64,000 nucleotides of DNA from Candidatus Methylomirabilota bacterium (GCA_035464095.1 DATHSO010000150.1:56593-120592), one strand, 5' to 3'; positions 20,252 through 53,511 are shown, counted from the stretch's first letter. The notes: a model not told the origin generated them from the sequence alone. Numbers and translations: made by a program.

Positions 20252-20450
20252 TGCAGTGGCAGTTCCAGCGGCCGTGAACGATCGCCCGCGCCGGAGCGGG
20301 CGTCTCACCTCGATCCCGATCCCGGTCCCGATCCCGGTCCCGAACGGCCCGGGTCCGGGTTCGAGTCCGGTTGCTGCCGCTACCCCTGCCGATGCCACTG
20401 AATCTGATACTGCCACTGAGTCTGCCACTGTCACTGCCGCTGTCTCCTGC
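20252..20450. repeat. left repeat complex of the four-helix-bundle cassette (element E2)
   Basis: GCAGTGGCAGT fragment 20252..20262; 19-mer GTGAACGATCGCCCGCGCC 20274..20292; (GATCCC/GGTCCC)x5 20312..20342; degenerate CTGCCR units 20373..20450. Confidence 0.85.
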
Positions 20451-20586
20451 TACGGCCCCGCCGGCATGATCACCTCCGGGCCGTTCCTGGCGGCGGTGGT
20501 AGTCGCCGGGACGTTCCGCGTCATGGGCGCCCGACCACCCGACCTCCCTTGACCCGGAACGCCCCGGCGACTCGGGGGAGAGGGCC

Positions 20587-20955
20587 ATGAACGACCCGGA
20601 GGTGACCATGCACGACAACCGATCCGGCAACGAGCTCACCGCCCACCGCAAGGCCGTCGAGGCCGCGGGTATCGCCATCAGCCTCGTCCCACGGCTACCC
20701 GCCCATCTCAGGAGCCTCGCCGACCAGGTTGTCCGGTCCGCCTCGTCGGTGGCCGCCAACCTCGCCGAGGGCCAGGGCCGATTCGGGAAGGACCGCGCTT
20801 ACCATTGGCGCATCGCGTACGGCTCCGCTCGAGAGGTCGACACCCATCTCAGGCTCCTGATCGGTGCGGGTGCCGCCGATCGAGCCCTGACCGCGATCAG
20901 CCTCTTCGACGAAGTGCGAGCCATGACCTGGCGGTTGCTCCATCCCCAGCTCTGA
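20587..20955 (+). CDS. four-helix-bundle protein (23S rRNA intervening-sequence protein family; Avd-like)
   Basis: Motifs QVVRSASSVAANLAEGQGR and RIAYGSAREVDTHLRLL match the family signature (R.A.S...NIAEG..R; A.GS..E..T.L). SD GGGGAGAGG lies upstream. Confidence 0.8.
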   Translation: MNDPEVTMHDNRSGNELTAHRKAVEAAGIAISLVPRLPAHLRSLADQVVRSASSVAANLAEGQGRFGKDRAYHWRIAYGSAREVDTHLRLLIGAGAADRALTAISLFDEVRAMTWRLLHPQL

Positions 20956-20978
20956 CGCGGCCTGGTCGGCGTGCCGCA

Positions 20979-21003
20979 TTGTGGGGCCGGCGGCTCGCCG
21001 GCC
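20979..21003 (+). other. conserved 25-nt motif with 8-bp GC stem-loop downstream of the four-helix-bundle ORF
   Basis: TTGTGGGGCCGGCGGCTCGCCGGCC is identical to 45424..45448. Stem GGCCGGCG / CGCCGGCC with a 3-nt loop and no U-tract. Confidence 0.85.
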
Positions 21004-21025
21004 TCGCCCGGGCGTTCCGGACCTT

Positions 21026-21136
21026 AGTGACAGTCACAGTGGCAGTGCCAGTGGCAGTGGCAGTGGCAGTGGCAGTGAACAGTCGCCCGCGCCGCTGCCG
21101 CCGTCCACCTCTCCCACTCCTTCTCGCTCTCCCTCG
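21026..21136. repeat. right repeat complex of the four-helix-bundle cassette (element E2)
   Basis: (AGTGAC/AGTGGC)x~9 at 21026..21077 is the reverse complement of the CTGCCA unit. It is followed by the 19-mer GTGAACAGTCGCCCGCGCC 21075..21093 and a CT-rich run 21103..21136. Confidence 0.9.
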
Positions 21137-32866: not shown

Positions 32867-32971
32867 CCCCTCTCCTTCTCTCTCTCCCTCTCCCTTTCCG
32901 TCTCCCTTCGCGGGCGGGCTGGTTATCGCAAGGGAGAGGGAGAGAGAGAAGGAGAAGGAGCGGGAGAGGGG
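32867..32971. repeat. CT-rich / GA-rich inverted-repeat hairpin (element E3)
   Basis: Left arm CCCCTCTCCTTCTCTCTCTCCCTCTCCCTTTCCGTCTCCCT 32867..32907 and right arm AGGGAGAGGGAGAGAGAGAAGGAGAAGGAGCGGGAGAGGGG 32931..32971. The 23-nt loop contains TTATCGCAAGG. Confidence 0.9.
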
Positions 32972-38758: not shown

Positions 38759-40075
38759 TCAGTCGAGCACGGCCTTGACCATCTCCTCGATGACGCCGGG
38801 CTCCACCTCCTCGAGCTCGTAGGTGACGTTCGCCACCGGCTTGTTGACGGTGATGATCCGCTTGAGCTCGATCGGCGTGCCCTCCACGACCACGTCCGCC
38901 GGGGTCGCGTTGATGGTCTCCTGGAGGTCCTTGATCTGCTGCTCGCCGTAGCCCATGGCGGGCAGGATCCTGGCCGCGTTGGGGTACTTGTCGTAGGTCT
39001 CCTTCAGAGTCCCCACCGCGTACGGGCGGGCGTCGACGATCTCGGAGGCGCCGGCCTGCTTGGCCGCGAACCAGCCCGCGCCGTAGGTCATGCCGCCGTG
39101 GGTCAGGGTCGGGCCGTCCTCGACCACGAGGGCCCGCTTGCCGGCGATCAGCTCGGGTTGCTCGGCGGTGATCTTGGAGCGGCACTTGATGACCCGGGCC
39201 GACGGGTTGGCCCGGTGGCAGTTGTCGACCACCTCCTCGACCTTGACCGGATCGGCGGTGTCGACCTTGTTGACGATGAGCAGGTTGGAGATCCTGAGGT
39301 TGGTCTCGCCCGGGTAGTAGCTGAGCTCGTGGCCGGCCCGGTGTGGGTCGACCAGGGTGATGTGGAGGTCCGGCTTGTAGAAGGGGGTGTCGTTGTTGCC
39401 GCCGTCCCACAGGATGACGTCGGCCTCCTTCTCGGCCTCACGGACGATCTTCTCGTAGTCGACGCCGGCGTAGACCACGAAGCCGTTGTCGATGTGGGGC
39501 TCGTACTCCTCCCGCTCCTCGATGGTGCACTGGTGCCGGTCGAGGTCCTCGTAGGTCTCGAAGCGCTGGCAGATCTGCTTGGTGAGGTCGCCGTAGGGCA
39601 TGGGGTGGCGGATCGCCACCACCCGCTTACCGAGCTTCTTGAGGATCCGCGACACGTAGCGGGTGGTCTGGGACTTGCCGACGCCGGTGCGCACGGCGGT
39701 GATGGCGATGATCGGCTTTGACGACGAGATCATCGTCCGGGTCGCCGAGCAGACCCCGAAGTGGGGGCCCCAGCCGATGACCTGGCTCGCCTTGTTCATG
39801 ACGTAGGTGTGGGCGACGTCGGAGTACGAGAACCAGACCTCGTCGACCCCGTGCTCGCGGACGACCTCCTCGAGGTCGTCCTCGGGCACGATGGGAATGC
39901 CGTCCGGGTAGAGCGAGCCCGCCAACCCGGCCGGGTAGGTCCGGCCCTCGATGTCGGGGATCTGGGTGGCGGTGAAGGCCACCACCAGGTAGCGCTCGTC
40001 GTCCCGGAACAGGGTGTTGAAGTTGTGGAAGTCCCGACCGGCCGCGCCCATGATGACGACCTTGGTCCTGTCCAT
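38759..40075 (-). CDS. COG2403-type P-loop protein (family often annotated cyclic 2,3-diphosphoglycerate synthetase-like)
   Basis: N-terminus KVVIMGAAGRDFHNFN, VVAFTATQIPDIEGR and P-loop ITAVRTGVGKSQTT. Function is not established in bacteria. Confidence 0.6.
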   Translation of the reverse strand: MDRTKVVIMGAAGRDFHNFNTLFRDDERYLVVAFTATQIPDIEGRTYPAGLAGSLYPDGIPIVPEDDLEEVVREHGVDEVWFSYSDVAHTYVMNKASQVIGWGPHFGVCSATRTMISSSKPIIAITAVRTGVGKSQTTRYVSRILKKLGKRVVAIRHPMPYGDLTKQICQRFETYEDLDRHQCTIEEREEYEPHIDNGFVVYAGVDYEKIVREAEKEADVILWDGGNNDTPFYKPDLHITLVDPHRAGHELSYYPGETNLRISNLLIVNKVDTADPVKVEEVVDNCHRANPSARVIKCRSKITAEQPELIAGKRALVVEDGPTLTHGGMTYGAGWFAAKQAGASEIVDARPYAVGTLKETYDKYPNAARILPAMGYGEQQIKDLQETINATPADVVVEGTPIELKRIITVNKPVANVTYELEEVEPGVIEEMVKAVLD

Positions 40076-40157
40076 GGATTGTCCTCCTCGGATCACCACG
40101 CCGGCGGTGTCTCCCTGCCGGCGACCCGCCGGGTAAGGCTGAACCGGCGGGGCGAGC

Positions 40158-40196
40158 GCATTCTACCACCAGCGCTTCGCGCGGGTGGTAGAATGC
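40158..40196. repeat. 12-bp perfect hairpin with 15-nt loop
   Basis: GCATTCTACCAC ... GTGGTAGAATGC. Each arm contains TAGAAT/ATTCTA, a possible -10 element for the minus-strand COG2403 gene. Confidence 0.8.
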
Positions 40197-40205
40197 TAAA
40201 TTCTC

Positions 40206-40318
40206 AATTATGAATTATGAATTATGAATTACATCGCAAGGGCGGCGACGTCTTCGAGAGCAGTTCACAGGATCAGTGCCCGCCATTCATAATTCATAAT
40301 TCAAAATTCATAATTCAC
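40206..40318. repeat. AT-rich heptamer foldback (element E4)
   Basis: (AATTATG)x3.9 at 40206..40232 and its complement (CATAATT-type)x~5 at 40285..40318 flank a 52-nt GC-rich core. Strong AT island in a GC-rich genome. Confidence 0.9.
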
Positions 40319-40321
40319 GGG

Positions 40322-41854
40322 TTACTCCCACTCGATGGTGCCGGGGGGCTTGGAGGTGACGTCGTAGACGACCCGGTTGATGCCGGCGACCTCGTTGACC
40401 ACCCGGCGGGCGATGCGGTCGAGGACCTCGGGCGGGAAGCGGAACCAGTCGGCGGTCATGAAGTCGCTGGTGGTCACGGCGCGCACCGCCAGCACCTGGT
40501 CGTAGGTGCGGGCATCGCCCATGACCCCCACCGAGCGCACCGGGAGCAGCACGCACAGGGCCTGGGCGATCGCGTCGTAGAGGCCGGCGCTCCGGATCTC
40601 GTCGATCACGATCGCGTCGGCCTGCTGCAGGGTCCGGACCTGGTCCCGGCTGACCTCGCCGAGGATCCGCACCGCGAGCCCCGGACCGGGGAAAGGGTGG
40701 CGCCAGACGAAGTCGTGGGGCAGGCCGAGCTCCTCCCCCACCCTGCGGACCTCGTCCTTGAACAGGTCCCTCAGCGGCTCCACCAGCTCGAGGCCGAGCC
40801 GCTCGGGCAGCCCGCCCACGTTGTGGTGGGTCTTGATCACCGCTGCCGTGCCGCGTACCCCCGACGACTCGATGACGTCCGGGTAGAGGGTGCCCTGGGC
40901 CAGGTAGGCGGCGTCGGGGAAGCGCCGGGCCTCGGCCTCGAAGACCTCGATGAACTCGCGGCCGATGATGCGCCGCTTCTGCTCGGGGTCGGCGACCCCG
41001 GCGAGGGCGTCGAAGAAGCGGTCGGCGGCGTCCACCAGGTCGAGCTCGATGCCGACCTCGGCGAAGCGGGCCATGACCGCCGCCGCCTCGTTCTGGCGGA
41101 GCACCCCGGTGTCGACGAAGATCGGCACCACCCGGCCGCCGATCGCCTCCCGCAGCAGCAGGGCGGTCACCGACGAGTCGACCCCGCCCGACACGGCGCA
41201 GATCACCCGGCCCGATGGAATCCGGCGCCGCAGGTCGGCCACCAGCTCGTGGCGGATGGCGGCCGGGTTCCAGTCCCGGCGGGCGCCGGCGAGGTGGATG
41301 AAGCGCTCGAGCATGGTGGTCCCGTGGGGGGTGTGGCGGACCTCGGGGTGGAACTGCAGGCCGATGAGCCCCCGCTCCCGGTGAACCATGGCCGCCACCG
41401 GCGAGTTGGAGGTCCGGCCCACCGCCTCGAATCCGTCGGGCAGCCGGATGACGTGGTCGCCGTGGCTCATCCACACGGTCTGCGATGCCGGCGTGCCCCT
41501 CAGGATCGAGCCGTCGTGGGTGACCTCGAGCTCGGCGAGGCCGTACTCCCGGCGGTTGGAGGCCGCCACCTCGCCGCCCAGGTCCCGGGCCATCAGCTGC
41601 ATGCCGTAGCAGATGCCGAGCACCGGCACCCCGAGCCCGAAGACCGCCGGGTCGACCTGGAGGGCGCCGGGCTCGGTGACGCTGGCGGGGCCGCCGGAGA
41701 GGACCACCGCGATCGGCTCGGCAGCACGCACCTCGTCGCCCGGAAGGTCGCCGCGCTCGATGACCGTCTTGACGCCGAGCTCCCGCAGCCGGCGAGCGAT
41801 GAGCTGGGTGTACTGGGAGCCGAAGTCGAGGATCAGGATGGTCTCGTGCCGCAT
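40322..41854 (-). CDS. guaA: GMP synthase (glutamine-hydrolysing)
   Basis: N-terminus ILILDFGSQYTQLIARRLRE, GICYGMQ, ATP-PPase SGGVDSSV, and C-terminus YDVTSKPPGTIEWE. Confidence 0.95.
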   Translation of the reverse strand: MRHETILILDFGSQYTQLIARRLRELGVKTVIERGDLPGDEVRAAEPIAVVLSGGPASVTEPGALQVDPAVFGLGVPVLGICYGMQLMARDLGGEVAASNRREYGLAELEVTHDGSILRGTPASQTVWMSHGDHVIRLPDGFEAVGRTSNSPVAAMVHRERGLIGLQFHPEVRHTPHGTTMLERFIHLAGARRDWNPAAIRHELVADLRRRIPSGRVICAVSGGVDSSVTALLLREAIGGRVVPIFVDTGVLRQNEAAAVMARFAEVGIELDLVDAADRFFDALAGVADPEQKRRIIGREFIEVFEAEARRFPDAAYLAQGTLYPDVIESSGVRGTAAVIKTHHNVGGLPERLGLELVEPLRDLFKDEVRRVGEELGLPHDFVWRHPFPGPGLAVRILGEVSRDQVRTLQQADAIVIDEIRSAGLYDAIAQALCVLLPVRSVGVMGDARTYDQVLAVRAVTTSDFMTADWFRFPPEVLDRIARRVVNEVAGINRVVYDVTSKPPGTIEWE

Positions 41855-41916
41855 GGGCGCTCCGTTTCGCGTGCTCCGGCGGAGCATAGCAGAGGCCCCC
41901 GGGACCGGAGCGTCGT

Positions 41917-42536
41917 GGGTTTTAACCGCGAAGACGCAAAGATCGCGAAGCCATCGCAGACATCGCATTGTTAACGCAGAGGCGCAGAGACATCGCAGAC
42001 ATCACAGCTCAACGCAAAGGCGCCAAGGCGCAAAGACGCAAAGACATCGCAGCCATCGCAGGGAGTGTGGGCGGCGGAGTCGGCGGCGGTTCGGAACCGC
42101 CGCCACCGCGACGGCGTGCGTCCGATCCGAACACGGGTGTTCGTCCCGGCCGCATGCCGTCCCGGCCCGCTGTGCTCGGAGCACAGCGGCTCCGCCTCGG
42201 TGACACGTTGCCTTCACGTCATGCCGAGTCGGGCGTCCCGGGCCTGTCGAATCCTCGGGGAGCCCTCGGAGATCGACCTTCGGGGAATGCCAACCCGGAC
42301 CTCAGTGCCGCACCGTCGGGCCTCACTCCGGACCGCGGGAGAGCGACGCACCGTCGACCGTCAGACCCGCACGCTCCCGAGCTGCGATGCCCTCGGCACC
42401 ACTGCGTAGGTCTGCGATGGGCCAGAAATGCGATGGTGCGATGGCTCTGCGGCTCTGAGCCTCTGCGTTGAAAATGCGATGTGCGCGATGACCTTGTGAT
42501 GTCTTCGCGTTCTCCGCGTCTTCGCGGTTCAACCCC
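41917..42536. repeat. ~620-bp foldback element with ~150-nt word-repeat inverted arms (element E6)
   Basis: Left arm 41917..42063 and right arm ~42382..42536 are imperfect reverse complements built from the words CGCGAAG, CCATCGCAG, GCGCAGAG and ACGCAAAG. Termini are GGGTTTTAACCGCGAAGACGC / GCGTCTTCGCGGTTCAACCCC. Confidence 0.85.
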
Positions 42537-42559
42537 GACACCGCCCCGCCGCCCCCAGA

Positions 42560-42588
42560 TTGCGCAATCCGGGGCAACGCGCTAAGAT
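42560..42588 (+). promoter_or_regulatory. sigma-70-like promoter for rex
   Basis: TTGCGC - 17 nt - TAAGAT, located just outside the right terminus of element E6. Confidence 0.45.
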
Positions 42589-42620
42589 CGCGCTTGTGAA
42601 ATCGGACACATGATCGGCCG

Positions 42621-43310
42621 ATGCAGGAACCGTCGGCCGCGGAGTGTCCTGGAGTGGCCATGACCGCATACAAACGGCACATCGACAACTCGGCGATCTC
42701 GGACCTCACGGTGGCCCGGCTCTCGGTCTACCTCCGGTGCATGGACCGGCTGCTGGAGCTCGGCGTCGACACCGTCTCGAGCCAGGCGCTGGCGGACCGC
42801 TTCGGCCTCAACTCGGCCCAGATCCGCAAGGACCTGGCCTACTTCGGCGAGTTCGGGGTGCGCGGGGTGGGCTACAACGTGCGCGAGCTCCGGCAGTACG
42901 TGGTCGAGATCCTGGGCCTCGACCGGGAGCGGCGGCTGATCATCGTCGGGGCCGGCAACCTCGGCACCGCCCTCTGCCACTACTCGGGCTTCTCGGGCGG
43001 CAACTTCCTGGTGGTGGCCATCCTGGACTCGGACCCGAGCCGGATCGGCGACCCGACCCCGGCCGGCCTCCTGGTCGAGGACGCGGCCCGCCTCGGCGAG
43101 ATCGTGGCCCAGCGCCAGGTGGAGATCGGCGTCATCACGACGCCGGCATCCGCGGCCCAGGTGGTGGCCGACTCCATGGTCGACGCCGGCCTCAAGGCGA
43201 TCCTCAACTTCGCGCCGATCAGGGTCCGCGCCCCCGGGGGCGTGCTGGTCAAGACCGTCGACCTGGGCGTCCACCTCGAGGAGCTCAGCTTCCACCTGAC
43301 CCACGCCTGA
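42621..43310 (+). CDS. rex: redox-sensing transcriptional repressor Rex
   Basis: Motifs RLSVYLRCM, IRKDLAYFGEFGVRGVGY and Rossmann IVGAGNLGTAL. Confidence 0.9.
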   Translation: MQEPSAAECPGVAMTAYKRHIDNSAISDLTVARLSVYLRCMDRLLELGVDTVSSQALADRFGLNSAQIRKDLAYFGEFGVRGVGYNVRELRQYVVEILGLDRERRLIIVGAGNLGTALCHYSGFSGGNFLVVAILDSDPSRIGDPTPAGLLVEDAARLGEIVAQRQVEIGVITTPASAAQVVADSMVDAGLKAILNFAPIRVRAPGGVLVKTVDLGVHLEELSFHLTHA

Positions 43311-45062: not shown

Positions 45063-45092
45063 GTCATCAGTAGTGAGTGGTGAGTGTCGGAC

Positions 45093-45182
45093 GGTGCCAG
45101 GTACGGCGACTTGACAAACACGCCAAGAACCACGCCACCGCTGCATCGATGACGAGTTTGTCAAGTCGCCGTACCTGGCACC
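45093..45182. repeat. perfect 27-bp inverted repeat with 36-nt loop
   Basis: GGTGCCAGGTACGGCGACTTGACAAAC (45093..45119) and GTTTGTCAAGTCGCCGTACCTGGCACC (45156..45182). The right arm lies within the decayed four-helix-bundle reading frame. Confidence 0.95.
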
Positions 45183-45405
45183 CTCGGAGATCGTCCGATC
45201 CACGGGACCGGGGCACGGGAGGGCCGGGAAGGATCGGGCGTACTACTTCCGCGTCGCCTTCGGCTCCGCGAAGGAGGCCGAGACCCACCTCGGGATTCTG
45301 CTCACTGCCGGTGTTATCGATCGCGGCCAAGCCATTCGCGCCCTCCGGCTCTTCGACGACGTCCGCGCCATGACTTGGAGGCTCCTTCCCCCTCACCCTG
45401 AACTT
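45115..45405 (+). pseudogene. decayed four-helix-bundle (IVS-protein family) gene remnant
   Basis: My frame-1 translation gives ...PSEIVRSTGPGHGRAGKDRAYYFRVAFGSAKEAETHLGILLTAGVIDRGQAIRALRLFDDVRAMTWRLLPPHPEL, colinear with ORF 20587..20955. It has no ATG/GTG/TTG start, a shortened NIAEG region, and an upstream in-frame stop at 45112. Confidence 0.7.
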
Positions 45406-45423
45406 GCGCACCCGGGACGCTCG

Positions 45424-45448
45424 TTGTGGGGCCGGCGGCTCGCCGGCC
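45424..45448 (+). other. second copy of the conserved 25-nt stem-loop motif
   Basis: TTGTGGGGCCGGCGGCTCGCCGGCC, identical to 20979..21003 and in the same position downstream of the four-helix-bundle homology. Confidence 0.85.
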
Positions 45449-45451
45449 AAC

Positions 45452-45665
45452 GGGTGAACGCACCCGGAGCCGGAGCCGGTGCTGGTCGCTGACGCCGGTC
45501 GCTGACGCTGGCGCTGGTTGCTGCCCCTGATCGCTGGCGCTGATCGCTGATGCTGATCGCTGATGCTGATCGCTGACAGCTGGTCGCTGTCATCGGGTGC
45601 GGGCACCCGGCTCCGCCTTCGGCTTCGCCGTGCCAAGCGGACGCGGACGCGGACGGGGGAAGGCC
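45452..45665. repeat. right repeat complex of the decayed cassette (element E5)
   Basis: GGTGAACGCACCCGG; (GGAGCC)x2; GCTGGTCGCTGAC/GCTGATCGCTGAT units 45481..45592; GCACCCGGCTCC; (GGACGC)x3 45638..45657; GGGGGAAGGCCGGG. Confidence 0.85.
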
Positions 45666-48619: not shown

Positions 48620-48738
48620 CCTACTTTTTCCCCTCCTTCTTCCTCTCCCCCGGGCGATCCGGAACGCTCGACTGATGACAGTCCGCTGTGAATCCGGGTC
48701 GTGTCTGGGAGAGGAAGAAGGAGAGGAAAAAGGAGAGG
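48620..48738. repeat. CT-rich / GA-rich inverted-repeat hairpin (element E8)
   Basis: Left arm CCTACTTTTTCCCCTCCTTCTTCCTCTCCCCC 48620..48651 and right arm GGGAGAGGAAGAAGGAGAGGAAAAAGGAGAGG 48707..48738. The 55-nt core has its own imperfect IR. Confidence 0.9.
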
Positions 48739-50847: not shown

Positions 50848-51797
50848 GCCGGCTGCTGCGCTTCACCGTCCCCGACAGCCTGGCCGGGAGCCGGCTCGAC
50901 CGCTGCCTCGCCGCCCTCGAGGAGCCCTGGTCGCGGTCGCGGGTGCGGCGGCTCGTCGACGACGGCCGGGTCACCCACAACGGCCGGCCGGCAAAGCCGG
51001 CGACCACGGTCGCCGCCGGGGACGAGCTGGTGGTGGACGAACCCGACGTCGAGCCCCTGGACGTGGTGGCTGAGGCCATCCCCCTGACGGTGGTCTTCGA
51101 GGACGACGAGATCCTGGTGATCGACAAGCCCGCCGACCTGGTGATCCACCCCGCCGCCGGCAACCCCTCCGGGACCCTGGTCAACGCCCTCCTCCACCAC
51201 TGCCGGGACCTGTCGGGGATCGGCGGGGTCGCCCGTCCCGGCATCGTCCACCGCCTCGACAAGGACACCACGGGCCTCATGGTGGTGGCCAAGACCGACC
51301 GCGCCCACCAGGCCCTGGCCCTGGCCTTCCGCTGGCGCAAGGTGACCAAGACCTACCTGGCGGTGTGCTACGGCTCGCCGGCCGACGACGAGGGCGTCGT
51401 CGACGCACCCATCGACCGGCACCCCCGGGAGCGCCGGCAGATGGCGGTGGTCGCCGACGGCCGCCCGGCGCGGACCCTGTACTCCGTGGCGGAACGCTGG
51501 CAGGGGGTCTCGCTGCTGCACTGCCGGCTGGTTACGGGCCGCACCCACCAGATCCGGGTCCACATGGCCCACGTCGGCCACGCCCTGGTGGGCGACCCCC
51601 TCTACGCCGGGCGGCAGTGGCGGAACGTGCCCGATCCTCGGGCGCGGGCGGCCTGCCGGGAGTTCCCGAGGCAGGCGCTGCACGCCATGCGGCTCGCGTT
51701 CGCGCACCCCGTCAGCGGCGAGGTCCTCGAGCTCGAGGCGCCGCCGCCGGCCGACCTGCAGGGCCTCATCGACCTCCTGCGGCGCGCGGGGGGTTGA
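50844..51797 (+). CDS. rluD: 23S rRNA pseudouridine synthase, RluD family
   Basis: S4-like N-terminus, then GIVHRLDKDTTGLMVVAK and TGRTHQIRVH. The ATGA overlaps the lgt stop. The stop codon lies inside the terminus of the foldback element at 51790. Confidence 0.9.
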   Translation: MSRLLRFTVPDSLAGSRLDRCLAALEEPWSRSRVRRLVDDGRVTHNGRPAKPATTVAAGDELVVDEPDVEPLDVVAEAIPLTVVFEDDEILVIDKPADLVIHPAAGNPSGTLVNALLHHCRDLSGIGGVARPGIVHRLDKDTTGLMVVAKTDRAHQALALAFRWRKVTKTYLAVCYGSPADDEGVVDAPIDRHPRERRQMAVVADGRPARTLYSVAERWQGVSLLHCRLVTGRTHQIRVHMAHVGHALVGDPLYAGRQWRNVPDPRARAACREFPRQALHAMRLAFAHPVSGEVLELEAPPPADLQGLIDLLRRAGG

Positions 51798-52389
51798 ACC
51801 GCGAAGGCGCGAAGGACGCGAAGCCATCGCAGTCATCGCAGAGCCATCGCAGGCATCGCAGGTTGAACCGCAAAGACCGCGAAGAGCGCAACGCAGGGCA
51901 CGCGAAGACATCGCATTTCTGAGCCATCGCAGGCATCGCAGGCGTCGCAATCACGAAGACACCGAGACACGAAGAAATTTGATCGTGGCGGCGGCGGCTC
52001 GCCGGTGGTCGCCGGCGATGCCGATCACGTAACCGTATCCTCCGTAGGCGGGTCGTTGACGACCCGCGACCACCGACGTGGAGGGGGCCGGTGGCGTCGG
52101 TCGAGACCGCGGGCGTCGTGGCCGCGGGGCCTGAAGACCCCGCCTACGGGGAGGGGCTGCCGGGTTCGTGGTGTGGTTGCCGGATCGGCCTTGAGGGGTC
52201 GGGATCGGGACCCTCCTACTTCGTGTGCGACGTCTTCGTGATTTCGTGTTTCAAACTGCGATGGTTGCGATGGCTCATTCCTGCGATGGTGCGATGGACT
52301 CTGCGCCTCTGCGCCTCTGCGCCTCTGCGCTGAATGCGATGGCTGCGATGGCTGCGATGGCTTCGCGTTCTTCGCGTCTTCGCGGTGAC
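51790..52389. repeat. ~600-bp foldback element, same family as 41917..42536 (element E7)
   Basis: Left arm 51790..~51978 starts GGGGTTGAACCGCGAAGGCGCGAAGG. Right arm ~52219..52389 includes (CTCTGCGC)x4 and (GCGATGGCT)x3 and ends GCGTCTTCGCGGTGAC. The arms are imperfect reverse complements. Confidence 0.85.
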
Positions 52390-52413: not shown

Positions 52414-53511
52414 TCAGAACCGGCCCTCGAGGGTGCCGGCGTAGCCGGTGAGCTCGGCGTAGCCCTCGCCGCCGGTGGTGCCGGAGGCCTCGACGGGCCC
52501 CTCCCAGTAGACGACGCCGGTGGTGGCGCGGCCGTCGAGCTCGGCCGACGGGAGCAGGGCCTTCACCTCGAGGTCGATGGCGTGGGCCGGGACCCGAAGG
52601 CGCCACCGGATCGGGTAGCGGCCGCCGGTGGCCGGGCTGGTCCACCACTCGAGTGGCGCGAGGTCGACGTCGTCGCGGTCGAGGCGGGTCGTGCCGCCGT
52701 CGGGCCCGACCAGGGTTCCCGAGGAGTAGGGGTCGGCCGACCCGTCGGCCCGCCGCAGGCGATAGACCATGAGGTCGCGGCCGTCGGCCAGGCGCAGGCT
52801 GAACCAGTCCCAACCGACCACGCCGGCGCCGAGCTGGGAGGTTCCCCACTCGTGGTCGAACCAGGCCGTGCCGGTGACCGTGACGCTGGCGCCCGCAACC
52901 TCGATCCGGCCGCCGACGGCGAGCCGGGTCCAGCTCAGGTAGGCCGAGGCGTTGCCGGGGTCGGCGCCCTTCCGGGAGTAGCCGTCGAGGCCGTGGAGCA
53001 CCAGGGGCCGCGTCGGTCGGAGCTCGAGGTCGAGGCCGATGGCGGCGGCCGGGTCCCGGGCGTCGACGGTGATCCTGCCGTCCGGTCGGCGGCGCATGCT
53101 CCAGTCCTCGAGCCAGACCTTGAGGTCGTCCGTCGCCGCGCCGGCGAGGCCGCCGGCCCACCGGCGCAGGCGCTCGGCGTGGTGGAAGCGGCCGGCGTCG
53201 ATCTCGGCCACCGCGATGTGGGCGGCGGCGATCTGCCGGGCGCGCAGCTTCGACTCGCCCGCCGGGGCGTCGCCGGGAGCCATGCCCTGGCGGAAGAAGG
53301 TGACCTGGAAGCCGTAGCGCTTGCCGTCGTCGCCGTCGAGCAGCCCGGTGACGTACCACCACTCGGTGCGGTGGGCGGGGTGGGCGCCGTGGTCGCGGGG
53401 GAAGACCAGCTCGGGCGGGCCGGTGACCTCGAGCCAGGCGGGTCCCTCGGCCGCCGCGGAGGCGCCGACCAGCGCCGCGAGGAGAAGCCACGAAACGGTG
53501 AAGCGAGCCAC
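52414..53511 (-). CDS. AttH/CrtC-like lipocalin-domain protein (ABC-transporter associated)
   Basis: Motifs FPRDHGAHPAHRTEWWYVTG, GFQVTFFR and AWFDHEWG. Signal peptide present; the GTG start abuts the permease stop. Confidence 0.75.
   Translation of the reverse strand: MARFTVSWLLLAALVGASAAAEGPAWLEVTGPPELVFPRDHGAHPAHRTEWWYVTGLLDGDDGKRYGFQVTFFRQGMAPGDAPAGESKLRARQIAAAHIAVAEIDAGRFHHAERLRRWAGGLAGAATDDLKVWLEDWSMRRRPDGRITVDARDPAAAIGLDLELRPTRPLVLHGLDGYSRKGADPGNASAYLSWTRLAVGGRIEVAGASVTVTGTAWFDHEWGTSQLGAGVVGWDWFSLRLADGRDLMVYRLRRADGSADPYSSGTLVGPDGGTTRLDRDDVDLAPLEWWTSPATGGRYPIRWRLRVPAHAIDLEVKALLPSAELDGRATTGVVYWEGPVEASGTTGGEGYAELTGYAGTLEGRF

Follow-up and report, generated by a model that had tools for sequence, protein, structure and literature searches.

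What is the 620-bp inverted repeat that lies between guaA and rex in a genome labelled Candidatus Methylomirabilota bacterium, and is it peculiar to this place? We studied it in a window of 64,000 nucleotides (GCA_035464095.1 DATHSO010000150.1:56593-120592), by which we mean the whole stretch of DNA analysed; its GC content is about 70%. An original prediction had described the repeat, here called E1, as a foldback element whose arms consist of repeated short words, and had pointed to a second element, E2, about 10 kb away in the same window. We consider it probable, on balance, that E1 is one member of a foldback family of Acidobacteriota that is non-coding and non-autonomous and occurs mainly in Thermoanaerobaculia. 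The features of the window on which the argument depends are the following:

41917 to 42536, no strand assigned: E1, the whole foldback element, with its arms; fold z of -8.0 (plus strand) and -8.5 (minus strand); absent in five relatives.
41917 to 42063, plus strand: left arm of E1, made of three super-units, each with a TTGAAC-like string, then CGCRRAG words, then CATCGCAG words.
42073 to 42196, minus strand (the favoured folding strand): M1, a 124-nt four-way-junction (cloverleaf) module at the beginning of the E1 core.
42197 to 42381, no strand assigned: variable part of the E1 core, non-coding, without relatives and without a second cloverleaf according to covariance model R1.
42382 to 42536, minus strand: right arm of E1, whose word order equals that of the left arm when the minus strand is read.
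51790 to 52389, no strand assigned: E2, the second element, with the same arm vocabulary as E1 and an unrelated core without M1.
41883 to 41891, minus strand: candidate extended -10-like motif of guaA, TGCTATGCT (TGnTATnCT), read from the sequence and located outside E1.
42560 to 42588, plus strand: candidate rex promoter, TTGCGC-N17-TAAGAT, followed at 42594 to 42613 by a Rex-box-like TTGTGAAATCGGACACATGA; both read from the sequence.

The arms of E1 and E2 are inverted and about 150 nt long each, those of E2 lying at approximately 51790-51975 and 52219-52389. They showed a hierarchical organization: words of 8-9 nt (CGCGAAG, CGCAAAG, CGCAGAG and CATCGCAG) are assembled into super-units of about 50 nt, each opened by a TTGAAC-like string. 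In the left arm of E1 this produced three direct-repeat families (D1-D3) with spacings of 48/54 nt and 8-9 nt. The ordered words common to the arms of both elements were TTGAAC-CCGCGAAG, CGCRRAG and CATCGCAG, and one ordered module, ACCGCGAAG-N11-GCGAAG[AC]CATC[GA]CA, was present in all four arms. This vocabulary was far above chance: CATCGCAG occurred 17 times in the window against 3.3 expected, 16 of these occurrences being within E1 and E2, and the composite pattern ACCGCRAAG-N3-27-GCRAAGNCATCRCA matched six times against 0.00 expected, with all four arms among the matches (in E1, 41925-41958 in the left arm and 42495-42528, minus strand, in the right arm). The imperfect reverse complementarity claimed for the arms of E1 was confirmed, with blocks of 77% over 60 nt and 83% over 42 nt; the arms of E2 were 93% complementary over 44 nt. 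The strings quoted in the original prediction were also found where it had placed them (GGGTTTTAACCGCGAAGACGC at 41917, GGGGTTGAACCGCGAAGGCGC at 51790, GTGTGGGCGGCGG at 42065, and the opposite-strand terminus GGGGTTGAACCGCGAAGACGC, ending at 42536). Immediately outside, a degenerate version of an outer word could be recognized on both sides (CGTCGT, 41911-41916; GACACC, 42537-42542), through which E1 may extend to 41911-42542.

A BLASTn alignment of E1 with E2 showed that their arms are similar and their cores are without similarity. Both elements were predicted to fold far more stably than shuffled sequence on either strand (z from -8 to -11); the E2 core folded alone was unconvincing, with z of -0.96 on the plus strand and -2.85 on the minus strand. 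The E1 core had been said to lack a convincing ORF, and we agree: GC3 of the core frames of E1 and E2 was 0.67-0.79, against 0.97 in guaA, and no frame presented the coding signature of the genome. No BLASTn relatives of the E2 core or of the variable part of E1 were detected in about 1 Mb of related loci. We also considered ACCGCRAAG as an uptake-signal-like word and rejected this reading, because within the window the word is limited to E1 and E2. Other hairpins of the window have private vocabularies (AATTATG, CCCTCT, CTCCTTCTTCC).

Pfam searches located guaA at 40322-41854 on the minus strand and rex at 42660-43310 on the plus strand, with E1 between these divergent genes. E2 lies between convergent genes: that of an RluD-like pseudouridine synthase, with its end at 51797, and that of a CrtC-like lipocalin on the minus strand, with its end at 52414; the stop codon of the rluD-like gene (51795-51797) falls inside the E2 terminus GGTTGAACC. 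The Rex protein of the window was a 100% match to that of a MAG labelled Methylomirabilota, and the next relatives, at 90-93% identity, included proteins labelled Thermoanaerobaculales.

The candidate -10-like motif of guaA is 28 nt upstream of the start codon (41852-41854), and the guaA-proximal motif GGCGGAGnATAnCAGAGGC, which reads TGnTATnCT on the guaA strand, occupied the corresponding position in each of the five relatives compared (see below). On the other side of E1, the rex -10 region and the Rex-box-like TTGTGAA-N6-CACATGA could likewise be aligned with the relatives. E1 had been placed 24 bp before the rex promoter candidate, in good agreement with the 23 bp that separate it from the -35-like hexamer TTGCGC. 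We infer that the guaA and rex motifs are promoters; a simple sigma-70 consensus scan called no promoter at these sites, and a scan of E1 and E2 for U-tract terminators gave none. The claim that E1 separates guaA from its upstream region is probably not right: the conserved extended -10-like motif sits on guaA's side of E1, so guaA probably keeps its promoter and is probably not cut off from it by the element. The effect of E1 on guaA and rex is probably small, and most likely E1 would be a tolerated insertion between divergent promoters, of little consequence for either gene.

We compared the guaA-rex region with that of relatives in five contigs (L105-L109). In all of them guaA and rex were adjacent and divergent, with a spacer of 130-218 bp as compared with 805 bp in the window; subtraction of E1 leaves 185 bp (805 - 620). 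E1 was absent from the five contigs, i.e., from four related lineages, and sites without the element, for which the original prediction had suggested a search, thus exist in the spacers of these relatives. Since both sides of the spacer align with those of the relatives, E1 fills a short gap between back-to-back promoter-like regions, both of them intact. The nucleotide identities of guaA between the window and the four other lineages were star-like (0.77-0.80; 0.85 between L108 and L109), and for this reason a single gain of E1 in the window lineage appears more parsimonious than several losses. An exact empty-site junction was not found at guaA-rex in the five relatives, because they are only about 80% identical at the nucleotide level and their spacers have diverged. 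Short strings resembling the element ends were present at the homologous place in L106 (GGTTTTGAC...GCGATGGACAC), L109 (GGGTTGAGAG) and L105 (GGATTCACCGCACATCC...CGATGGACAC). They may reflect target preference, a relic or chance, and because the spacers of relatives hold them, loss of E1 from an occupied ancestral site or recombinational replacement would also be possible. As for E2, the site after rluD was occupied in L111 and L112 by elements with related vocabulary, a situation more in line with long-standing retention than with recent movement. A further hairpin, after guaA (40199-40316), kept its position in all the relatives; its 7-mer word differed in each of them, with both arms matching.

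The arm pattern was scanned as an exact pattern in one genome per species, and it occurred in at least 104 loci among the matches listed. Word-rich matches concentrated in a few MAGs of Acidobacteriota/Thermoanaerobaculia: among the matches listed there were at least 16 loci in MFD09964.bin.2.45, at least 9 in MFD03804.bin.1.249, at least 9 in Thermoanaerobaculales MAG_Ve_Sed_50 and at least 7 in MFD09779.bin.1.87. Many single matches in unrelated taxa look like chance. The proposal that the termini are common to several loci, in the manner of MITEs, was upheld, and further copies do exist: more than 100 arm loci and about 35 strong copies of M1 (see below). The family termini were usually one word further out than those given in the original prediction, with sharp ends at CATCGCAG...CTGCGATG. 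A family member is organized as follows:

Part 1: the outer word CATCGCAG.
Part 2: an arm of 50-270 nt, with super-units of TTGAAC-CCGCRAAG, several CGCRRAG words and several CATCGCA words.
Part 3: the core, with the 124-nt M1 at its start and often a second cloverleaf, M2, at its end on the other strand.
Part 4: the inverted arm, finishing in CTGCGATG.

In these loci we found 34 arm pairs enclosing cores of 4 to about 1250 nt, which are mosaics of shared modules, except that the longest (about 1250 nt) corresponded to an ordinary gene between separate hairpins. The long "cores" of L085 and L123 were considered as autonomous copies of the family and rejected, as they too were ordinary genes between separate hairpins. 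Two copies in L043 matched nearly throughout their 408-nt core (94% by BLASTn), with similarity ending exactly at CATCGCAG and CTGCGATG and unrelated flanks; from this pair, some family members look as though they were copied recently. The copies are related by descent, and their counts overstate the number of independent events. No target-site duplication was observed at E1, at the two L043 copies or at the other copies inspected. The outer units of the arms had diverged more than the core, through gain or loss of whole words. In the orthologous elements L043a and L115, CGCAAAG words in both arms of the former corresponded to CGCAAGG in both arms of the latter; since the switch shows in both arms, the arms change together. 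The family is thus dispersed, multi-copy, discrete, non-coding and sharp-ended. Plasmid, phage and IMG/VR collections gave no match to the element, and our search of the literature for these words or for such elements found nothing specific. The family is previously undescribed, and E1 is a real member of it.

Megablast and BLASTn searches recovered, from other genomes, sequences with 75-88% identity to the segment 42069-42200, located beside the same type of arm. This segment contains M1, whose consensus fold presented a 7-bp closing helix, GGCGGAG/CTCCGCC, around three hairpins. A metagenome scan anchored on the M1 ends added 18 loci, in which the ends of M1 are set by the search pattern. 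In an alignment of 22 distinct copies, 17 of the 41 pairs had compensatory changes, i.e., both sides were altered and the pair was kept. Overall, 96.9% of the alignment cells were paired (98.2% for the mirrored structure of the opposite strand), a level reached by none of 500 shuffles, and sliding the partners left 35-54% paired. To judge from this alignment, the M1 fold is maintained by compensatory changes. The covariance model R1 scored the window M1 with 118.5 bits (E = 2.8e-16), recovered the roughly 35 strong copies mentioned above in 640 kb of loci, and also detected a more distant M1 subfamily (L038, L041, L077). On the minus strand, the window M1 had a predicted folding energy of -95.2 kcal/mol (z of -7.0). 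A second cloverleaf family, M2, with the closing helix GGCCGGG/CCCGGCC, was picked up by the same model; in many elements it is inverted and lies beside the opposite arm. E1 has M1 only.

Searches against Rfam 15 at the gathering score revealed no match in the window or at the M1 copies of L026, L041 and L043, and nothing relevant in ten loci, where Acido-Lenti-1 in L063 was unrelated. With E up to 10, E1 gave only chance matches to microRNAs. M1 is a candidate for a new structured RNA or single-stranded DNA motif, modelled from its alignment and matching nothing in Rfam. M1 did not qualify as a tRNA or tRNA-like gene: ARAGORN called none in the window, nor in nine loci that bear elements, and the junction linkers and loops are unlike those of tRNA.

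The cloverleaf modules showed a marked strand preference. The favoured strand folded better in 25 of 25 M1 copies, by a mean of -13 kcal/mol, and in 10 of 11 M2 copies. G.U pairs numbered 102 on the favoured strand of M1 versus 24 on the other, and 43 versus 5 for M2, although the M2 bias is partly circular because the orientation of M2 was chosen by the model. Where the favoured strand has a G.U pair, the opposite strand has an A.C mismatch. M1 and M2 favoured opposite physical strands in all seven elements holding both, which, like the magnitude of the bias, speaks for a genuine strand preference of M2. E1's own M1 had a weak wobble bias (2 versus 1 G.U pairs), and its favoured strand is the minus strand of the window, that is, the direction of guaA; the better-folding strand of E2 is that of the upstream rluD-like gene. 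Folding energies of whole elements had no consistent strand bias (8 copies favoured one strand and 6 the other), in keeping with arms that must pair on both strands. A strand-specific fold implies that a single-stranded form matters, either RNA or DNA with G.T pairs tolerated.

Genes next to the M1 copies were predicted with a crude codon-position gene caller. In 12 of the 15 copies with a predicted gene beyond M1, this gene was read towards the element on the M1-sense strand, and 20-110 nt separated its stop codon from the arm. For several copies the genes on the two sides were convergent, the other gene ending 10 nt or less from the other arm. E2 fits this arrangement after stop codons and between convergent genes, and E1, between divergent genes, is the exception. 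The same positional pattern has been reported for REPs and many MITEs (PMC3733652). These positions would fit read-through transcription, selection for tolerated sites, or both. Judging by its gene neighbourhoods, the family usually sits directly after stop codons and is probably transcribed.

If E1 is, as we favour, a non-autonomous foldback element, its copying would proceed at the DNA level, by way of a folded single strand and with the enzyme provided in trans, and insertions would survive only at permissive intergenic places, typically directly after stop codons. The inserted element would then be transcribed through read-through from the neighbouring gene; its arms would form a long duplex, possibly terminator-like or a substrate for RNase III, and the sense cloverleaf would fold beside the 3' arm in the transcript. 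No transposase recurred beside the copies in about 1 Mb of loci, where none of the recurrent neighbour protein families was transposase-like. Neither a gene flanked by these arms nor a parent insertion sequence with the same ends was found in the window or in the same 1 Mb.

It is possible, though we would not expect it, that the word-arm foldbacks are RNA features selected by the host (terminators, 3'-end stabilisers or processing signals) and not mobile elements, with the cloverleaf as a functional non-coding RNA or processing signal and with spread by recombination or gene conversion between arms. The location of copies directly after stop codons and between convergent genes would suit such a role, as would the strand-specific folds, the co-evolving arms, the prediction of no U-tract terminators at E1 or E2, the occupation of the E2 site after rluD in relatives, and the hairpin after guaA, kept in position while the 7-mer word of both its arms changes. 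However, E1 is located between divergent promoters, where a terminator role is not obvious, and is absent from four related lineages; the close similarity of copies within one genome and their sharp ends also point to the copying of discrete units. Function and mobility are compatible, and both readings may be true at once. A tentative idea, to which we give rather less credit, is that these elements form a new foldback class whose cargo is a pair of strand-specific cloverleaf RNAs, one for either strand, expressed by read-through from the flanking gene that happens to be directed inward, and freed from the arm duplex. The cloverleaf could then be a 3'-end processing or priming signal, by analogy with the logic of tRNA-like 3' structures; alternatively, it could be a handle for an RNA-guided or single-strand-guided copying enzyme, possibly linked to the Avd-like four-helix-bundle genes carried by sister cassettes. 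It is unlikely that E1 depends, as a non-autonomous partner, on a Y1 (HUH) tyrosine transposase (RAYT, TIRYT or IS200 type) and moves as a folded single strand, as has been proposed for REPINs, PATEs and the TIR repeats of the acidobacterial "TIRtrons". The missing target-site duplication, the folded, strand-specific subterminal modules, different at either end, the GTRG-tagged REP-like hairpins, and an IS200-like Y1 gene inside a word hairpin in L106 are all consistent with such a partner. Moreover, Y1 transposase genes flanked by long inverted repeats have been described, with Acidobacteria having a group of their own, and so have repeat families that arose from such repeats (Di Nocera 2013, PMC3733652); by analogy these acidobacterial enzymes would be the most concrete lead to the mobilising enzyme. 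Against this, no Y1 gene was flanked by the arms; in the window and about 1 Mb of loci Y1 occurred only at L106/L112, where the gene has its own, different hairpin ends and lies in a different word hairpin. Besides, the arms are not palindromic REP units and are without a GTAG or CGTC tag. That E1 is a local palindrome made in place by slippage or template switching and unrelated to other loci seems to us scarcely credible: the window does have several hairpins with private vocabularies, but the ordered arm modules are common to E1, E2 and more than 100 other loci, and M1 shares its 75-88% identity with copies in other genomes.

The original prediction had regarded E1 as a cassette whose ORF has been lost, related to the four-helix-bundle genes of the window. 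One such PF05635 gene (20587-20955) is contained in a foldback at 20380-21077 with arms of CTGCCA hexamers, a cassette that has an 82% identical counterpart with the same words in another genome; GCTGATC-type words come after a second, truncated copy (45130-45405). Downstream of both genes there is a REP-like hairpin, ATTGTRG and then GCCGGCG-NCTC-GCCGGC, with covarying pairs; it is similar to the REPs with a GTAG tag described by Di Nocera et al. 2013 (PMC3733652). That the window holds one PF05635 gene in inverted word arms plus a truncated second, and that the same hairpin lies inside some M1-family cores (L060, L118, L126), would favour E1 as a decayed cassette of this protein of 23S rRNA intervening sequences, an origin that we nevertheless find very improbable. 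The string GTGTGGGCGGCGG, said to resemble the motif after the four-helix-bundle genes, consists of a variable lead-in, different in other copies, and the first helix strand of M1; the motif in question is a separate hairpin that is absent from E1. The tblastn search with the window PF05635 protein recovered only 20587-20952 and 45130-45405, and gave no similarity in any frame of E1, E2 or the 34 same-arm cores from other genomes. The arm vocabularies are also different (CTGCCA and GCTGATC versus the E1 words). The E1 core starts with M1, conserved in dozens of copies and never accompanied by the PF05635 ORF, and this conserved candidate RNA, unrelated to the other loci, counts against the cassette part of the original prediction. 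Because words, ORF and core are not shared, E1-type elements and PF05635 cassettes are better regarded as neighbours in a repeat-rich ecosystem than as parent and remnant. The 23S rRNA intervening sequences with a PF05635 ORF (PMC4990558) are, like E1, foldbacks with inverted ends around a cargo; E1 differs in having no ORF or remnant of one, in its arm words and in its location outside rRNA.

Among known systems, MITEs and REP/BIME-type repeats are the nearest to the family in kind, and eukaryotic foldback transposons in arm architecture; from each of these classes the family departs in defining features. MITEs such as Correia/NEMIS, ERIC, RUP and Nezha are, like E1, small, non-coding, multi-copy and gene-adjacent, with terminal inverted repeats, and fold into long hairpins when transcribed (in part after PMC3733652). 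The terminal inverted repeats of E1 and E2 are 77-93% complementary, and E1 is a 620-bp, non-coding, multi-copy element; however, its arms are at least 150 nt long and internally repetitive, as compared with 15-30 bp for MITE repeats, it has no target-site duplication, no matching insertion sequence was found in the window or in about 1 Mb of loci, and its core has conserved cloverleaf modules. REP, REPIN and BIME repeats and the TIR repeats of TIRYTs share with the family an extragenic location, mostly between convergent or same-direction genes, units that are single, head-to-head or tail-to-tail, a mosaic structure as in BIMEs, G.T pairing that suggests a single-stranded form, and no target-site duplication (PMC3733652). 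An extragenic position after genes was seen in 12 of 15 copies, with E1 itself as the exception. In contrast to the REP palindrome of 20-40 nt, the family unit is a directional and much larger word array, without a GTAG or CGTC tag and with no associated Y1 transposase found. The Foldback transposons of eukaryotes (Drosophila FB, Galileo, Tetris; PMC3573991 and PMC4079207) have very long inverted arms of tandem sub-repeats like those of E1, a sub-repeat number that varies between copies and a variable middle, as in the family. Those transposons, however, have target-site duplications and transposase-coding masters, so that the likeness is architectural only. IS200/IS605-derived PATEs are expected to have unlike subterminal hairpins at their ends, neither TIRs nor target-site duplications, and insertion 3' of a short fixed target. 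The missing duplication and the unlike modules at the two ends (M1 and M2) would suit a PATE, the long terminal inverted repeats would not, and no fixed target was seen among the copies inspected. The BOX elements of Streptococcus pneumoniae are modular, intergenic and folded, with a variable number of one module; the modules and size of E1 are different, and BOX elements have no long inverted word arms or cloverleaf.

Small dispersed repeats of bacteria are thought to be of few kinds, mainly REP/REPIN, BIME and a handful of MITEs. The family described here is unusual in combining arms like those of eukaryotic foldbacks, no target-site duplication, and conserved, strand-marked cloverleaf modules. 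To our knowledge, few non-coding RNAs have been described in Acidobacteriota, and the family offers this phylum a specific candidate motif, as RNA or single-stranded DNA; new structured RNAs are nominated on covariation support like that of M1. The family is also a tractable case for the question of how long hairpins whose arms are of low complexity arise, stay complementary and spread. With regard to annotation, numerous long "empty" stretches between genes, and spurious ORFs, are accounted for by the family in the high-GC MAGs concerned. Finally, a T-run was present on the core side of M1 in about half of the copies; its position relative to the hairpins was inconstant, and some copies had an A-run.

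The intergenic region between the divergent guaA (40322-41854, minus strand) and rex (42660-43310, plus strand) genes, which holds the 620-bp foldback element E1 (41917-42536), presented the following promoter-like sequences:

41883-41891, minus strand: extended -10-like TGnTATnCT upstream of guaA
within 42560-42613: TTGCGC-N17-TAAGAT of rex, then a Rex-box-like TTGTGAAATCGGACACATGA

The extended -10-like motif was conserved in the window and in all five relatives that have adjacent divergent guaA and rex genes without E1. The presence of a Rex-box-like sequence at the promoter-like region of rex suggests that this gene would be autoregulated. A Rex protein identical to that of the window (P0001) is labeled Methylomirabilota bacterium at NCBI; this label may be wrong, since both the closest relatives of P0001 and the repeat family suggest an affiliation with Thermoanaerobaculia (Acidobacteriota).

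Directly after guaA, a hairpin was found (40199-40316) in which both arms are made of tandem AATTATG words, i.e., short repeated units. Hairpins occupied the orthologous positions in relatives (L105, ~2055-2280; L108, ~2225-2335; L109, ~2230-2340; L106, 1040-2245), with GAGTTAT, AATGATG or other AT-rich words swapped in both arms together, and that of L106 encloses an IS200-like Y1 transposase gene plus another word element. Another hairpin, CATTCTACCACC...GGTGGTAGAATG (40130-40195), was located upstream of a CobW-like gene on the minus strand (38759-40099) and also has a counterpart in the relatives.

Two genes of the PF05635 family (23S rRNA intervening-sequence or four-helix-bundle) were located within the window, each next to word repeats:

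20587-20955: PF05635 gene inside the foldback 20380-21077
45130-45405: second PF05635 gene, truncated, within 45077-45600

The arms around the first gene are inverted and composed of CTGCCA hexamers; a Thermoanaerobaculia metagenome-assembled genome (MAG; locus L012) had a CTGCCA-armed cassette 82% identical to window 20380-21077, its words unchanged. The truncated gene is preceded by a 39-nt hairpin, 90% complementary (45087-45188), and followed by a GCTGATC/GCTGACG word array (45481-45589). After both genes (20977-21004 and 45421-45447) comes ATTGTRG and then the hairpin GCCGGCG-NCTC-GCCGGC, whose stem covaries. This tagged GC hairpin, similar to GTAG/GTGG-tagged REP units, was present elsewhere (L060, 4338-4361; L094, 3094-3122; L118, 1150-1177; L126, 881-908), in some cases inside cores of the family of M1, the 124-nt cloverleaf (four-way-junction) module that starts the E1 core (42073-42196) and recurs in E1-related elements.

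About half of the M1 copies (among them those of L026, L103, L118, L119, L124, L128, L130 and L041) had a run of 5-9 T on the core side, in the antisense strand and 15-35 nt away, often between CTCTC and GAGAG. In the L043/L115/L116/L117 subfamily an A-run takes its place, and E1 presented neither run on the core side of M1. The metagenomic locus L114 (1945-2068) shares the closing-helix ends GCGGAGT...GCACAGCGGCTCCGCCTGCG with M1 and has a completely different interior; this may represent a module whose interior was exchanged. Another family of cloverleaves, M2, has the closing helix GGCCGGG/CCCGGCC, a first hairpin with a CCGTAGG loop, a long and variable middle hairpin and a third one, GCCACGG...CCGTGGC; it is positioned beside the other arm, its favored strand being opposite to that of M1 (L116, 574-708; L117, 5673-5806; L077, 605-738; L035, 7073-7202; L118, 1454-1584; L120, 2030-2163; L060, 2845-2975).

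The words ACCGCAAAG, CGCAAAG and CATCGCAAAG also build small hairpins in the opposite arrangement, pyrimidine arm first, in Terriglobia, Pyrinomonadaceae, Saprospiraceae and Betaproteobacteria MAGs (L028, 2968-3056; L029, 5373-5448; L063, 2295-2414; L074, 3440-3960, as a tandem array of ~107-nt units; L067; L084). This cross-phylum vocabulary might be explained by horizontal transfer, by mis-binning or by a binding factor in common. Further word repeats were found in the window:

32868-32958 and 48621-48735: word hairpins with private vocabularies
2710-2760: solo array of 8.5 CTGCCA units without inverted partner

The private vocabularies were CCCTCT/AGGGAG and CTCCTTCTTCC, the latter in a divergent intergenic region.
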